Part shown: positions 3,596 to 50,712 of the stretch, piece after piece
Position numbering within the stretch: position 1 is the stretch's first letter
How the letters are laid out: every line of letters begins with the position of its first letter
DNA from: Escherichia coli
GTDB lineage: Bacteria; Pseudomonadota; Gammaproteobacteria; Enterobacterales; Enterobacteriaceae
Direction: 5' to 3' (one strand)
NCBI RefSeq assembly: GCF_003334785.1
Contig: NZ_QOWV01000002.1
DNA: 64,000 bases
Program-made: the position numbers and the translations under genes
Notes under the pieces: model-generated
What the model was told of the DNA's origin: nothing
The model's input: only the letters and a program-made list of their open reading frames with translations
Databases searched by the model: none

Positions 3596-3638
3596 AAATC
3601 AGTGTATTGGTAGCTAAAAAGCCAGGGGCGGTAGCGTG
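3596..3638 (+). promoter_or_regulatory. JUMPStart element containing the ops motif GGCGGTAGCGTG (3627..3638) in the wza leader
   Basis: Exact ops 12-mer read in sequence, about 180 bp upstream of the wza start; same element repeated at 28098..28136. Confidence 0.8.
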
Positions 3639-7584: not shown

Positions 7585-7635
7585 GCACCGCCCCGTAGGC
7601 CGGATAAGGCGTTCACGCCGCATCCGGCAAGCAAA
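7585..7635. repeat. REP unit between wzc and wcaA
   Basis: ggccggataaggcgttcacgccgcatccggc REP-type palindrome. Confidence 0.5.
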
Positions 7636-18104: not shown

Positions 18105-18215
<111 letters not shown>

Positions 18216-18293
18216 ACCGAGATGTAAATAACGACAAAAACAAAATTGGCCGTTTCGGTCAGGGCCAACTATTGCCTGAAAAAGGGTAACGAC

Positions 18294-19718: not shown

Positions 19719-21113
19719 ATGACAAATCTAAAAAAGCGCGAGCGAGCGAAAACCAATGCATCGTTAATCTCTATGGTGCAACGCTTTTCAGATATCACCA
19801 TCATGTTTGCCGGACTATGGCTGGTTTGCGAAGTGAGCGGCCTGTCATTCCTCTACATGCACCTGTTGGTGGCACTGATTACGCTGGTGGTGTTCCAGAT
19901 GTTGGGCGGCATCACCGATTTTTATCGCTCATGGCGCGGTGTTCGGGCAGCGACAGAATTTGCTCTGTTGCTACAAAACTGGACGTTAAGCGTGATTTTC
20001 AGCGCCGGACTGGTGGCGTTCAACAATGATTTCGACACGCAACTGAAAATCTGGCTGGCGTGGTATGGGCTGACCAGCATCGGACTGGTGGTTTGCCGTT
20101 CATGTATTCGCATTGGGGCGGGCTGGCTGCGTAATCATGGCTATAACAAGCGCATGGTCGCGGTGGCGGGGGATTTAGCCGCCGGGCAAATGCTGATGGA
20201 GAGCTTCCGTAACCAGCCGTGGTTAGGGTTTGAAGTGGTGGGCGTTTACCACGACCCGAAACCGGGCGGCGTTTCTAACGACTGGGCGGGTAACCTGCAA
20301 CAGCTGGTCGAGGATGCTAAAGCAGGCAAGATTCATAATGTCTATATCGCGATGCAAATGTGCGACGGCGCGCGAGTGAAAAAACTGGTCCATCAATTGG
20401 CGGACACCACCTGTTCGGTGCTGCTGATCCCCGACGTCTTTACCTTCAATATTCTTCATTCCCGTATCGAAGAGATGAACGGCGTTCCGGTGGTGCCGCT
20501 GTATGACACGCCGCTTTCCGGGGTTAACCGCCTGATAAAACGTGCGGAAGACATTGTGCTGGCGACGCTTATTCTGCTGCTGATCTCCCCGGTGCTGTGC
20601 TGTATTGCGCTGGCGGTGAAACTCAGTTCACCAGGGCCGGTTATTTTCCGCCAGACTCGCTATGGCATGGATGGCAAGCCGATCAAAGTGTGGAAGTTTC
20701 GTTCCATGAAAGTGATGGAGAACGACAAAGTGGTGACCCAGGCGACGCAGAACGATCCGCGCGTCACCAAAGTGGGGAACTTTCTGCGCCGCACCTCGCT
20801 GGATGAATTGCCGCAGTTTATCAATGTGCTGACCGGCGGGATGTCGATTGTGGGGCCACGTCCGCACGCAGTAGCGCATAACGAACAGTATCGACAGCTC
20901 ATTGAAGGCTACATGCTGCGCCATAAGGTGAAACCGGGCATTACCGGCTGGGCGCAGATTAACGGCTGGCGCGGCGAAACCGACACGCTGGAGAAAATGG
21001 AAAAACGCGTCGAGTTCGACCTTGAGTACATCCGCGAATGGAGCGTCTGGTTCGATATCAAAATCGTTTTCCTGACGGTATTCAAAGGCTTCGTTAACAA
21101 AGCGGCATATTGA
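19719..21113 (+). CDS. wcaJ: Undecaprenyl-phosphate glucose-1-phosphate transferase WcaJ
   Basis: 464 aa; membrane N-terminus plus sugar-transferase C-terminal domain. Confidence 0.9.
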   Translation: MTNLKKRERAKTNASLISMVQRFSDITIMFAGLWLVCEVSGLSFLYMHLLVALITLVVFQMLGGITDFYRSWRGVRAATEFALLLQNWTLSVIFSAGLVAFNNDFDTQLKIWLAWYGLTSIGLVVCRSCIRIGAGWLRNHGYNKRMVAVAGDLAAGQMLMESFRNQPWLGFEVVGVYHDPKPGGVSNDWAGNLQQLVEDAKAGKIHNVYIAMQMCDGARVKKLVHQLADTTCSVLLIPDVFTFNILHSRIEEMNGVPVVPLYDTPLSGVNRLIKRAEDIVLATLILLLISPVLCCIALAVKLSSPGPVIFRQTRYGMDGKPIKVWKFRSMKVMENDKVVTQATQNDPRVTKVGNFLRRTSLDELPQFINVLTGGMSIVGPRPHAVAHNEQYRQLIEGYMLRHKVKPGITGWAQINGWRGETDTLEKMEKRVEFDLEYIREWSVWFDIKIVFLTVFKGFVNKAAY

Positions 21114-21114
21114 T

Positions 21115-22593
21115 ATGAGCTTACGTGAAAAAACCATCAGCGGCGCGAAGTGGTCGGCGATTGCCACGGTGATCATCATCGGTCTCGGGCTGGTGCAGAT
21201 GACCGTGCTGGCGCGGATCATCGACAACCACCAGTTCGGTTTGCTGACTGTGTCGCTGGTGATTATCGCGCTGGCAGATACGCTTTCTGACTTCGGTATC
21301 GCTAACTCGATTATTCAGCGAAAAGAAATCAGCCACCTTGAACTCACCACGTTGTACTGGCTGAACGTCGGGCTGGGGCTTGTGGTGTGCGTGGCGGTGT
21401 TTTTGTTGAGTGATCTCATCGGCGACGTGCTGAACAACCCGGACCTGGCACCGTTGATTAAAACATTGTCGCTGGCGTTTGTGGTGATCCCCCACGGGCA
21501 ACAGTTCCGCGCGTTGATGCAAAAAGAGCTGGAGTTCAACAAAATCGGCATGATCGAAACCAGCGCGGTGCTGGCGGGCTTCACTTTTACGGTGGTTAGC
21601 GCCCATTTCTGGCCGCTGGCGATGACCGCGATCCTCGGTTATCTGGTCAATAGTGCGGTAAGAACGCTGCTGTTTGGCTACTTTGGTCGAAAAATTTATC
21701 GCCCCGGTCTGCATTTCTCGCTGGCGTCGGTGGCACCAAACTTACGCTTTGGTGCCTGGCTGACGGCGGACAGCATCATCAACTATCTCAATACCAACCT
21801 TTCAACGCTGGTGCTGGCGCGTATTCTCGGCGCGGGCGTGGCAGGGGGATACAACCTGGCGTACAACGTGGCCGTTGTGCCGCCGATGAAGCTGAACCCG
21901 ATCATCACCCGCGTGTTGTTTCCGGCGTTTGCCAAAATTCAGGACGACACCGAAAAGCTGCGCGTCAACTTCTACAAGCTGCTGTCGGTGGTGGGGATTA
22001 TCAACTTTCCGGCGCTGCTCGGGCTGATGGTGGTGTCGAATAATTTTGTACCGCTGGTCTTTGGTGAGAAGTGGAACAGCATTATTCCGGTGCTGCAATT
22101 GCTGTGTGTGGTGGGTCTGCTGCGCTCCGTAGGTAACCCGATTGGCTCGCTGCTGATGGCGAAAGCGCGGGTCGATATCAGCTTTAAATTCAACGTATTC
22201 AAAACATTTCTGTTTATTCCGGCGATTGTTATTGGTGGGCAGATGGCGGGCGCAATCGGTGTCACGCTTGGCTTCCTGCTGGTGCAGATTATCAACACCA
22301 TTCTGAGTTACTTCGTGATGATTAAACCGGTTCTTGGTTCCAGTTATCGCCAGTACATCCTGAGTTTGTGGCTGCCGTTTTATCTCTCGCTGCCGACGCT
22401 GGTGGTCAGTTATGCGCTGGGCATTGTGCTGAAAGGGCAACTGGCACTGGGGATGCTGCTGGCGGTGCAAATAGCCGCGGGCGTGCTGGCGTTTGTGGTG
22501 ATGATTGTGCTGTCGCGCCATCCGCTGGTGGTGGAAGTGAAGCGTCAGTTTTGTCGCAGCGAAAAAATGAAAATGCTTTTACGGGCGGGGTGA
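21115..22593 (+). CDS. wzxC: Colanic-acid repeat-unit flippase WzxC
   Basis: 492 aa polytopic membrane protein; position. Confidence 0.9.
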   Translation: MSLREKTISGAKWSAIATVIIIGLGLVQMTVLARIIDNHQFGLLTVSLVIIALADTLSDFGIANSIIQRKEISHLELTTLYWLNVGLGLVVCVAVFLLSDLIGDVLNNPDLAPLIKTLSLAFVVIPHGQQFRALMQKELEFNKIGMIETSAVLAGFTFTVVSAHFWPLAMTAILGYLVNSAVRTLLFGYFGRKIYRPGLHFSLASVAPNLRFGAWLTADSIINYLNTNLSTLVLARILGAGVAGGYNLAYNVAVVPPMKLNPIITRVLFPAFAKIQDDTEKLRVNFYKLLSVVGIINFPALLGLMVVSNNFVPLVFGEKWNSIIPVLQLLCVVGLLRSVGNPIGSLLMAKARVDISFKFNVFKTFLFIPAIVIGGQMAGAIGVTLGFLLVQIINTILSYFVMIKPVLGSSYRQYILSLWLPFYLSLPTLVVSYALGIVLKGQLALGMLLAVQIAAGVLAFVVMIVLSRHPLVVEVKRQFCRSEKMKMLLRAG

Positions 22594-22619
22594 GTTGCTG
22601 TTTTCGGTTCCGACAACGG

Positions 22620-22808
22620 TTGCCGGATGCGGCGTAAAACGCCTTATCCGTCCTACGGTTCTGTGCTCGGGACCTGTAGGCCTGATAAGACGCGTCAGCG
22701 TCGCATCAGGCACTGAATGCCGGATGCGGCGTGAACGCCTTATCCGGCCTACGGTTCTGTGCTCGGGTCTTGTAGGCCTGATAAGACGCGTCAGCGTCGC
22801 ATCAGGCA
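22620..22808. repeat. Tandem BIME: two near-identical units of about 100 bp, each with a pair of inverted REPs
   Basis: Motif gccggatgcggcgt.aacgccttatccg.cctacggttctgtgctcggg.cctgtaggcctgataagacgcgtcagcgtcgcatcaggca occurs twice in tandem. Confidence 0.75.
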
Positions 22809-22868
22809 AAAAGCGGCAACGAACAAAACAAACGCAGCCTCACCTGGCATCAAATTTATGAGGAAAAA

Positions 22869-24149
22869 ATGAAATTACTTATTCTGGGCAACCACACTTG
22901 CGGCAATCGTGGCGACAGCGCCATCCTGCGCGGCTTACTTGATGCCATCAACATTCTCAATCCACACGCCGAAGTGGATGTGATGAGCCGCTATCCGGTC
23001 AGTTCTTCCTGGCTGCTCAACCGCCCGGTAATGGGCGATCCGCTGTTCCTGCAAATGAAACAACACAATAGCGCGGCGGGCGTTGTCGGGCGCGTTAAAA
23101 AAGTCCTCCGTCGCCGCTACCAGCATCAGGTATTGCTCTCACGCGTCACCGACACTGGCAAGCTGCGCAATATCGCCATCGCCCAGGGATTCACCGACTT
23201 CGTGCGCCTGCTGTCAGGTTACGACGCCATTATTCAGGTCGGCGGATCGTTTTTTGTCGATCTCTATGGCGTGCCGCAGTTTGAACATGCGCTTTGCTCA
23301 TTTATGGCGAAAAAGCCGCTGTTTATGATTGGTCACAGTGTTGGTCCCTTCCAGGATGAGCAATTTAACCAACTGGCGAACTATGTCTTTGGTCATTGCG
23401 ACGCGCTGATCATGCGCGAATCGGTCAGCCTTGATCTGATGAAACGCAGCAATATCACTACCGCAAAAGTGGAACATGGCGTCGATACCGCGTGGCTGGT
23501 CGATCACCACACCGAAGATTTCACCGCCAGCTATGCCGTCCAACACTGGCTGGACGTTGCCGCACAACAGAAAACGGTGGCAATTACCCTGCGCGAACTG
23601 GCACCGTTCGACAAACGTCTCGGCACCACTCAACATGCGTATGAAAAAGCCTTTGCCGGGGTGGTCAATCGCATTCTCGACGAAGGGTATCAGGTGATTG
23701 CGCTCTCCACCTGTACGGGCATCGACAGCTATAACAAAGACGACCGCATGGTGGCGCTCAATCTTCGCCAGCACATCAGCGATCCTGCCCGTTACCATGT
23801 GGTGATGGATGAACTCAACGATCTGGAAATGGGCAAAATTCTGGGTGCCTGTAAACTCACCGTTGGTACGCGTCTGCACTCAGCCATTATCTCAATGAAT
23901 TTTGCCACTCCGGCAATTGCCATCAACTACGAACATAAATCCGCCGGGATTATGCAACAACTGGGGCTGCCAGAGATGGCGATTGATATCCGTCATTTAT
24001 TAGATGGCAGCCTGCAAGCGATGGTTGCGGATACCTTAGGCCAGCTTCCGGTGCTGAACGCACGACTTAGCGAAGCCGTCAGTCGTGAGCGTCAGATAGG
24101 AATGCAGATGGTGCAATCTGTGCTTGAGCGCATCGGGGAGGTGAAATGA
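22869..24149 (+). CDS. wcaK: Colanic-acid pyruvyl transferase WcaK
   Basis: 426 aa; position. Confidence 0.9.
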   Translation: MKLLILGNHTCGNRGDSAILRGLLDAINILNPHAEVDVMSRYPVSSSWLLNRPVMGDPLFLQMKQHNSAAGVVGRVKKVLRRRYQHQVLLSRVTDTGKLRNIAIAQGFTDFVRLLSGYDAIIQVGGSFFVDLYGVPQFEHALCSFMAKKPLFMIGHSVGPFQDEQFNQLANYVFGHCDALIMRESVSLDLMKRSNITTAKVEHGVDTAWLVDHHTEDFTASYAVQHWLDVAAQQKTVAITLRELAPFDKRLGTTQHAYEKAFAGVVNRILDEGYQVIALSTCTGIDSYNKDDRMVALNLRQHISDPARYHVVMDELNDLEMGKILGACKLTVGTRLHSAIISMNFATPAIAINYEHKSAGIMQQLGLPEMAIDIRHLLDGSLQAMVADTLGQLPVLNARLSEAVSRERQIGMQMVQSVLERIGEVK

Positions 24150-28097: not shown

Positions 28098-28136
28098 CAG
28101 TGCTCTGGTAGCTGTAAAGCCAGGGGCGGTAGCGTG
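28098..28136 (+). promoter_or_regulatory. JUMPStart element with ops motif GGCGGTAGCGTG (28125..28136) upstream of the O-antigen operon
   Basis: cagtgctctggtagctgtaaagccaggggcggtagcgtg read directly; near-repeat of 3596..3638. Confidence 0.85.
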
Positions 28137-50234: not shown

Positions 50235-50272
50235 CAATAAAAAAGCCCCCGGAAGGTGATCTTCCGGGGGCT
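50235..50272 (-). terminator. his attenuator terminator hairpin
   Basis: Minus strand reads agcccccggaag-atcac-cttccgggggc followed by UUUUUUAUU, between hisL and hisG. Confidence 0.85.
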
Positions 50273-50335
50273 TTCTCATGCGTTCATGCACCACTGGAAG
50301 ATCTGAATGTCTTCCAGCACACATCGCCTGAAAGA

Positions 50336-50386
50336 CTAGTCAGGATGATGGTGATGATGGTGGTGTTTAAATTGAACGCGTGTCAT
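50336..50386 (-). CDS. hisL: his operon leader peptide (MTRVQFKHHHHHHHPD)
   Basis: Minus-strand 16-codon ORF with seven consecutive His codons upstream of the attenuator. Confidence 0.9.
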   Translation of the reverse strand: MTRVQFKHHHHHHHPD

Positions 50387-50600: not shown

Positions 50601-50712
50601 GATTTGTTCCTGCCGGATGCGGCGTGAATGCCTTATCAGGTCTACAAATATTGCCTAAATTCAATGTATTGATGTTTTTGTAGGACTGATAAGCGGAGCG
50701 CATCAGGCAATT
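50601..50712. repeat. REP cluster in the hisL-yeeZ intergenic region
   Basis: gccggatgcggcgtgaatgccttatcagg ... gactgataagcggagcgcatcaggc REP-type palindromes. Confidence 0.55.

Follow-up and report, generated by a model that had tools for sequence, protein, structure and literature searches.

A two-unit BIME-2 array, REP144 of K-12, at the wzxC-wcaK junction of the Escherichia coli colanic acid operon and its variation in unit number within the species

REP and BIME clusters have been known since 1982–1991. BIME-1 elements combine z1 and y REPs, are present as single copies and contain a long L linker, in which an IHF site is often located, and BIME-2 elements combine z2 and y REPs in tandem copies, with short S and s/l/r linkers and a copy number that varies between strains (PMC3333891). 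In vivo, gyrase cleavage is concentrated in BIME-2 elements, chiefly at the y REP, and this enrichment is independent of transcription (PMC6379681). The closest studied analogue of the element described here is REP325, which consists of six Y-l-Z2 units between yjdM and yjdN, and its 77-nt Y-l-Z2 unit is the source of the Rfam family RF02564 (naRNA4) (PMC4550694). It is reported that REP325 stabilises the mRNA of the upstream gene yjdM, reduces that of the downstream gene yjdN about 8–10-fold, partly via Rho, and gives rise to a ladder of hairpin-ended RNAs, and that REP-separated tandem gene pairs are biased genome-wide toward the upstream gene (10.64898/2026.03.23.713779). For the junction between wzxC and wcaK, the entry "REP144, Tandem, 2118652-2118467, wzxC / wcaK" is listed for MG1655 (supplement, 10.64898/2026.03.23.713779), and REP insertions between wcaK and wzxC, numbering two copies in some O157 strains and four in others, were described together with a sequence-similarity junction at the same place (Iguchi et al., 2011; PMC3158064). 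The wzxC-wcaK array is thus already known, being catalogued in K-12, with its strain variation published in 2011. Compared with the six strains of Iguchi et al. (2011; PMC3158064), the present sample widens the range to 0–6 units (0–12 REPs) and adds a deletion junction.

In the window analysed here, a stretch of 64,000 nucleotides of E. coli DNA, the array is flanked by wzxC (21115-22593) and wcaK (22869-24149), both of which gave full-length NCBIfam equivalog matches, and the intergenic gap (22594-22868) measures 275 bp. Tandem Repeats Finder reported 22621-22808 as one tandem array with a period of 96, 1.9 copies, 94% matches, 1% indels and a score of 341, and a repeat search of the array recovered a direct repeat of 75 nt with 96% identity at a spacing of 96 nt, together with inverted repeats typical of REP hairpins. 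A first-pass annotation of this DNA had proposed that inverted REP pairs form a tandem duplicated BIME in the wzxC-wcaK gap, and had named a lack of tandem structure as the ground for giving up that proposal; the two methods agree in bearing the proposal out, with the 96-bp period found by Tandem Repeats Finder. Its statement that the element occupies the whole intergenic gap was overstated, as the array covers 188 of the 275 bp and has unique, non-repeat sequence around it, 27 bases on the 5′ side and about 60 bases on the 3′ side.

The four REPs of the array alternate in orientation (Y>, <Z2, Y>, <Z2). The Y REP of unit 1 (22622-22656, + strand), with the CTAC foot at its 3′ end, is followed by a 19-nt tail-to-tail linker in the S-type position (GGTTCTGTGCTCGGGACCT; 22657-22675, + strand) and by the inverted Z2 REP (22676-22711, − strand), which presents GTAGG at its 5′ end on the + strand. 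A 7-nt head-to-head linker, ACTGAAT (22712-22718, + strand), leads from unit 1 to unit 2, where a Y REP (22719-22752, + strand), a 19-nt tail-to-tail linker (22753-22771, + strand) and an inverted Z2 REP (22772-22807, − strand) follow in the same order. The REP foot motif CTTATCMGGCCTAC, with at most two mismatches, was found 10 times in the 64-kb window against 0.34 expected, and four of the 10 occurrences lie in the wzxC-wcaK array. The unique 5′ spacer (22594-22621, + strand) begins directly past the wzxC stop codon TGA (22591-22593) and contains the 5′ arm of an older hairpin (GTTGCTGTTTTCG; 22594-22606, + strand), which is kept in the empty-site alleles described below, and the left copy of an 8-bp direct repeat (CGACAACG; 22611-22618, + strand). 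The unique 3′ spacer ahead of wcaK (22808-22868, + strand) contains the right copy of this repeat (CGGCAACG; 22814-22821, + strand), the 3′ arm of the older hairpin (CGAACAAAACAAAC; 22820-22833, + strand) and the wcaK ribosome-binding site GAGG (22860-22863, + strand), 5 nt ahead of the ATG at 22869.

The array shows each of the properties by which BIME-2 elements are recognised, namely alternating Y and Z2 units, short linkers (19 nt and 7 nt, without the IHF consensus) and tandem copies whose number varies between strains (1.9 copies here and 0–6 units across E. coli). It also contains a full-length match to Rfam RF02564 (naRNA4) at 22679-22749 on the − strand that scores 79.7 bits (gathering score, 59.5). 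Each of its two hairpins, Y and Z2, departs from this model by one or two loop differences, the Z2 REP of unit 1 aligns near-perfectly to the Z2 hairpin of the model, and the head-to-head linker is 6 nt shorter than that of the model. Because the Y/Z2 REPs, the short linkers, the tandem copies and the RF02564 match all fit the class definition, we read the array as a two-unit BIME-2 with four REP palindromes, identical with REP144 of K-12, at a probability of about 0.9, a figure that also covers its general mode of action. Two checks that could have overturned this identity, agreement of the REPs with the Y and Z2 consensus and presence of the element in K-12, both came out in its favour, and the identity is regarded as settled. 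Within the classification of Gilson, Bachellier and Hofnung, the array shares with the BIME-2 family the Y/Z2 alternation, the short linkers, the tandem arrangement, the extragenic position and the variable copy number, and no difference from the family was found in these features.

The correspondence with K-12 is close. In MG1655 the wzxC-wcaK gap is likewise 275 bp long and holds the same two Y-S-Z2 units, and coordinate conversion places REP144 (2118467-2118652) at 22621-22806 of the window. The sole base difference in the gap lies in the Y REP of unit 2, which reads CCGGCC in the window and CCGTCC in K-12. Over 551–901 bp, the window locus matches strains VE-F10 and AST198 at 100% identity and K-12 derivatives at 99.0–99.5%. 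With REP325 the array shares both hairpin types, their arrangement and the co-orientation of the flanking genes, but it has two units instead of six and a head-to-head linker of 7 nt instead of 13 nt; moreover, it is located in a long RfaH-controlled operon, and its sense strand scores below the Rfam threshold.

A comparison of unit number with other E. coli genomes, which the first-pass annotation had put forward as a check, was carried out with a query restricted to 200 bp of flank on either side of the gap, with the repeat excluded, and the span between the two flanks was taken as the gap length. With this flank query, the wzxC-wcaK junction was found in 4,642 of 5,426 complete E. coli genomes. 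Units were counted in 59 genomes that have both flanks, sampled at even spacing, and their number ranges from 0 to 6. Two units, with a gap of 275 or 284 bp, represent the commonest state (21 genomes). Seven genomes have no unit (gap of 71 bp), two have a partial unit (145 bp), seven have one unit (179 bp) and three have three units (371 bp), and the longer arrays comprise four units in seven genomes (about 468 bp), five units in another seven (about 564 bp) and six units in two (about 662 bp). The 0-, 1-, 2-, 3-, 4-, 5- and 6-unit alleles were checked base by base and are clean [Y-S-Z2]n arrays. Unit number is stable within clones, with one unit in all sampled O157:H7 genomes and two in all sampled K-12 derivatives, and for this reason the array behaves as a slow VNTR rather than as a phase-variable switch. 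The remaining three genomes of the sample have a gap of 161 bp occupied by a different repeat sequence. This 161-bp allele, found in BL21(DE3), in the E. coli type strain and in 275 genomes in total, contains a different G+C-rich palindrome, CCCTCACCC...GGGGCGAGGGG, which may be a "box C" element. This B-strain repeat is not highly dispersed in E. coli, having a median of 1 place per genome at megablast sensitivity.

Loci of other species were collected with a degenerate pattern for the conserved WcaK N-terminus, which gave at least 120 loci, with none from E. albertii or E. fergusonii among those listed. Among the matches listed, wzxC lies directly upstream of wcaK in 72 loci of other enterobacterial species, where the median gap is 30 bp, 53 of the 72 gaps are no longer than 60 bp and 12 exceed 100 bp. 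The long gaps among these matches hold Citrobacter-type REP pairs in three loci (L071, L094, L074) and CCCTCACCC...GGGGAGAGGG palindromes in seven (L083, L048, L076, L092, L117, L121, L099); palindromes of the latter kind were found in Lelliottia, Pluralibacter, Phytobacter, Kosakonia and E. coli B. The long-gap element of one further isolate (L047) is presumably ERIC-like. Since the other genera mostly have a short gap, and long gaps are filled with other repeats, the comparison of these loci indicates that the BIME is an insertion in the Escherichia lineage at an insert-tolerant junction.

The E. coli alleles that lack the array help to delimit this insertion. At the empty sites, a hairpin of −21.9 kcal/mol, GTTGTTGTTTTCG-GTTCCGGCAA-CGAAAACAACAAC, is located directly past the stop codon. 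The hairpin is kept in the empty-site alleles L004 and L134–L137, which have a single CGGCAACG, and a second empty haplotype (L135–L137) has a different hairpin loop. The existence of two diverged empty haplotypes, rather than any comparison with sister species, argues that the empty state is old and may be ancestral. In filled alleles the 8-bp direct repeat flanks the array, and the empty sites have one copy of it. Its left copy is CGACAACG in the window and CGGCAACG in L131 and L132. Within any one allele the two copies share 6–7 of their 8 positions, and the least-changed copies, compared across alleles, agree at all 8; the chance of a 7/8 match at a fixed position is about 4e-4 by a binomial estimate. 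The flanking repeat looks like a target-site duplication; such a duplication is predicted neither by the IS200/IS605-type transposition model put forward for the REP-associated transposase nor by the usual description of REPs (PMC2817692, PMC3184786), and in reviews REPs are said to be without MITE signatures (PMC3184786). In the origin proposed here, a REP pair would have entered the loop of the small hairpin just past the wzxC stop codon, and units would then have been gained and lost locally in steps of 96 bp, through unequal recombination, slippage or a REP-associated transposase. A more far-reaching proposal is that the footprint of the original BIME arrival, namely the hairpin-loop insertion and the 8-bp CGGCAACG duplication, has been preserved, and, linked with it, that the repeated independent filling of the wzxC/wcaK junction by unrelated structured repeats in several genera may reflect selection for a structured uncoupling element, with unit number serving as an expression dial. 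Taken jointly, we regard these two ideas as speculative and unlikely.

Recombination at the array is illustrated by strain TUM11356, in which alkA immediately precedes wcaK. Over its first 92 nt, the alkA-wcaK gap of this strain agrees with the K-12 alkA-dgcE BIME at 90 of 92 positions. The switch point falls directly past a Z2 REP (...GCATCAGGC), after which the ACTGAAT linker and two wzxC-wcaK units follow. Judged from this junction sequence, TUM11356 has lost about 29 kb, dgcE through wzxC in K-12 coordinates, by REP-to-REP recombination with the junction inside the Z2 REP, and with it most of the colanic-acid cluster. The first-pass suggestion that such an array can act as a recombination site is therefore borne out by the allelic series and by the TUM11356 deletion, and agrees with the similarity junction reported earlier (PMC3158064). 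At the DNA level, the array would provide dispersed homology and serve as a substrate for recombination, deletion and copy-number change. Gyrase binding, which had likewise been suggested, is documented at the class level for BIME-2 (PMC6379681), and by analogy the array would be a preferred gyrase site; the wzxC-wcaK locus has no entry in the supplement text of the gyrase Topo-Seq study or in the RepRanger supplement.

At the RNA level, the sense transcript of 22580-22880 is predicted to fold with −144.6 kcal/mol (z = −8.2 against shuffles), and its last ~33 nt, among them the ribosome-binding site and the wcaK ATG, stay unpaired in the predicted fold. Among the individual hairpins, the Y REP of unit 1 (−15.6 kcal/mol) is less stable than that of unit 2 (−21.3 kcal/mol) owing to a G>T change (CCGTCC), and the Z2 REPs of both units reach −21.9 kcal/mol each. 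A whole Y-Z2 unit can also fold as one long hairpin, with a computed energy of −52 to −55 kcal/mol. The interval 22300-23100 contains no promoter-like site. An intrinsic terminator was considered as a candidate and rejected, as no G+C-rich, terminator-like hairpin followed by a T-run was found on either strand of that interval. Reportedly, Liang, Rudd and Deutscher (2015) defined REP translation regulators as REP hairpins lying within about 15 nt of the upstream stop codon; at this locus, 28 nt separate the wzxC TGA (22591-22593) from the first REP base (22622), which is more than the reported distance. A JUMPstart/ops element is located upstream in the cps operon at 3600-3638, with the ops sequence GGCGGTAGCGTG at 3627-3638. 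RfaH, which is recruited at JUMPstart/ops, would suppress Rho-dependent attenuation.

In the cps transcript, the four G+C-rich hairpins would block 3′-to-5′ exonucleases and the 275-nt gap would uncouple wcaK translation from wzxC, so that the array would favour the wza-wzxC portion of the transcript, which lies upstream, and partially attenuate wcaK-wcaL-wcaM, probably to a degree that rises with unit number. Any Rho-dependent share of this attenuation is probably lessened by RfaH antitermination from 3600-3638. By analogy with REP325, attenuation at the array is plausible, and because REP325 behaves in this way, a modest polarity that grows with unit number would be expected at the wzxC/wcaK boundary; the odds that such RNA-level polarity is large enough to measure appear about even. 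In K-12 RNA-seq data with cps uninduced, the mean counts are 36 for wzxC and 91 for wcaK, values that are low and not length-normalised (supplement, 10.64898/2026.03.23.713779), and they show no obvious drop across the array. Since wcaK, wcaL and wcaM are needed for colanic acid, yet strains with 0–6 units all keep the operon, the effect on cps must be quantitative and may be near neutral. A small effect is what we expect from the ops/RfaH system, the need for the downstream genes, the coexistence of strains with 0–6 units and the K-12 counts. Separately, what appears to be an antisense Rho/NusG termination peak is listed at MG1655 2118651-2118749, which corresponds to 22524-22622 of the window (− strand) and touches REP144 (supplement, 10.64898/2026.03.23.713779). 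This peak is a tentative hint that the array may also stop antisense transcription.

Several other readings of the array were weighed against its assignment to BIME-2. The first-pass annotation had listed IHF binding among the activities of such arrays, and an IHF-binding BIME-1 (RIB/RIP) that bends DNA inside the operon would have in common with the present element an inverted REP pair including a Y unit, in a class of REP clusters often cited as IHF sites (PMC3184786, PMC2817692). However, the IHF site belongs to the long L linker of the single-copy z1 + y BIME-1 (PMC3333891), and the wzxC-wcaK array shows none of these hallmarks: Y is paired with the long Z2 instead of Z1, linkers of 19 and 7 nt stand in place of a long L linker bearing an IHF site, and the units form a tandem instead of a single copy. 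The IHF consensus WATCARNNNNTTR has no match in 22594-22868, and the nearest of its 10 matches in the window lie at 20525 and 23688. The suggestion of IHF binding is thus not supported for this array, and the BIME-1 reading is very improbable. We give a similarly low probability to the array being a gene for an naRNA4-type nucleoid sRNA, which would act with HU to bridge cruciforms and condense the chromosome. The RF02564 match lies above the gathering score, and RNAs of Y-l-Z2 units are reported to bind HU and condense DNA (PMC4550694), but the match at 22679-22749 is antisense to cps (− strand), and on the transcribed + strand the score is 55.4 bits, below the threshold of 59.5. In addition, no promoter-like site is present in 22300-23100, the linker is 6 nt too short for the model, and the model in effect recognises any pair of Y and Z2. 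More recently, no measurable nucleoid compaction by REP325/naRNA4 was detected and REP-REP contacts were absent, in a study that has an author in common with the original naRNA4 paper (10.64898/2026.03.23.713779). In annotation, the Rfam naRNA4 match at the array should consequently be taken to mark a Y + Z2 REP pair rather than an sRNA gene. Both open reading frames that overlap the repeat exist as frames with TTG starts, at 22579..22809 (− strand, 76 aa) and 22595..22861 (+ strand, 88 aa), and this is what could be said for their being small-protein genes. Neither has an NCBIfam family match or a CDS in the RefSeq annotations of the genomes inspected, their length shifts by 32 codons per unit, their sequence is dictated by the REP palindromes, and they are impossible in 0-unit strains. 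The earlier judgement that the two frames are spurious was correct, the chance that they are genes is negligible, and neither should be called as a gene in annotation.

Two further readings concern the effect of the array on the operon. As an internal terminator, it would close a wza-wzxC unit and leave wcaK-wcaM to a promoter of their own, in keeping with the strong hairpins directly past the stop codon and with the reported ability of REPs to join in Rho-dependent termination (PMC6061677, 10.64898/2026.03.23.713779). Against this stand the lack of both a T-run hairpin and a promoter-like site in 22300-23100, the JUMPstart/ops antitermination signal upstream of the operon and the existence of 0-unit E. 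coli alleles. Furthermore, because other genera have only 13–30 bp at the wzxC-wcaK junction (among the matches listed), wcaK would normally be co-transcribed, and we consider an internal terminator quite improbable, if slightly less so than an sRNA gene or a BIME-1. A neutral selfish repeat, tolerated where the operon has one of its few uncoupled junctions and exerting no selectable effect on cps, is a possibility of real weight that we nevertheless hold to be clearly below even odds. It would fit the retention of the operon in strains with 0–6 units and in those with a quite different repeat, the presence of unrelated repeats or none at the same junction in other genera, and the K-12 counts without a drop across the array; the large local effects of REP325, the closest studied analogue, and the bias of REP-separated gene pairs to the upstream gene speak against it. 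Neutrality is a question of how large the effect is, not of what the element is, and it overlaps with the best explanation, the two-unit BIME-2 REP144.

The wzxC-wcaK array constitutes a hot spot of recombination and deletion that is able to remove most of the colanic-acid cluster. For strain typing, it offers a clonally stable 96-bp VNTR adjoining the O-antigen region. The natural alleles with 0–6 units represent a ready test set for the relation between BIME-2 unit number and polarity in a long RfaH-dependent operon.

Several alleles of the wzxC–wcaK gap, which holds the two-unit BIME array in the window, were found in E. coli. HUSEC2011 (O104:H4) carries a two-unit allele of 284 bp (L133, the retrieved HUSEC2011 locus, 211–494), in which the first linker is longer by nine bases that duplicate CCTGTAGG. 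A 145-bp gap, detected in two of the 59 sampled genomes and represented by UTAK-12 (L003, 645–789), is an internal deletion whose junction (GCTCG|CATCAGGC) fuses the linker with the terminal part of the Z2 REP. A 161-bp gap of quite different sequence is present in 275 of the 5,426 complete E. coli genomes (~5%), including B strains and the E. coli type strain. At this allele (L005, the BL21(DE3) locus, 645–805), a CCCTCACCC...GGGGCGAGGGG palindrome replaces the BIME at the same junction as window 22594–22868, and this palindrome may resemble the ‘box C’ repeat. Even at blastn sensitivity, ~13–14% of complete E. coli genomes (717–784 of 5,426) lack wcaK or the wzxC–wcaK junction, and the colanic-acid cluster is therefore partly or wholly missing or replaced in these genomes.

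Most of the colanic-acid cluster has been lost in E. coli TUM11356 (NZ_CP135656.1) through a deletion of ~29 kb extending from dgcE to wzxC in K-12 coordinates, which leaves wcaK directly adjoining alkA (L008, the TUM11356 locus, 1497–1842, corresponding to window 22676–22868). The deletion junction lies within a Z2 REP common to the alkA–dgcE BIME and the wzxC–wcaK BIME. Further REP copies occur in the window at 1322–1335, at 7595–7608 as a single copy, at 18143–18181 as an inverted pair just upstream of a match to the Rfam ‘algC RNA’ motif (18240–18289), and at 50632–50693 as another pair, ~300 bp away from the match to the histidine-operon leader. The gaps wcaA–wzc and cpsG–cpsB have also been reported to contain REPs (PMC3158064). 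The histidine-operon leader (50237–50360, minus strand) and the STnc240 sRNA (52658–52732, plus strand) both matched above the Rfam gathering score and, together with the cps genes, are consistent with the E. coli cps – O-antigen – his region.

The BIME array is bracketed by an 8-bp direct repeat, CGRCAACG, at window 22611–22618 and 22814–22821. The empty sites, E. coli alleles with no BIME unit (L004 and L134–L137), hold a single CGRCAACG copy, located in the loop/arm junction of a hairpin with a 13-bp stem. The CGRCAACG pair may represent a footprint resembling a target duplication, which is unexpected for REPs.

A supplementary table (10.64898/2026.03.23.713779) includes an entry for a NusG-dependent Rho termination peak antisense to wzxC, at MG1655 2118651–2118749. 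The entry corresponds to window 22524–22622 on the minus strand and touches REP144, the K-12 name of the array, and we tentatively take this table entry as a Rho termination peak. The window also contains two JUMPstart elements (Rfam RF01707), one at 3600–3638, upstream of the cps genes and with an ops-like GGCGGTAGCGTG at 3627–3638, and the other, identified by its Rfam match, at 28098–28136, ~2.7 kb downstream of wcaL. These elements would imply RfaH-dependent antitermination of the BIME-containing operon and of whatever follows the second JUMPstart.

Among the matches listed (L010–L129), the wzxC–wcaK gap, taken upstream of the match to the WcaK N-terminus, has a median of 30 bp in 72 other enterobacterial species. 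Gaps longer than 100 bp were found in 12 of these 72 species and are filled by unrelated structured repeats. REP pairs fill the long gap in Citrobacter; in Lelliottia, Pluralibacter, and Kosakonia the repeats are CCCTC/GAGGG palindromes, and locus L047 carries what is presumably an ERIC-like element. Shorter gaps of 77–78 bp in two Phytobacter species are likewise filled by this CCCTC/GAGGG palindrome family. The occurrence of unrelated repeats at this junction across genera indicates that it has been colonised repeatedly.
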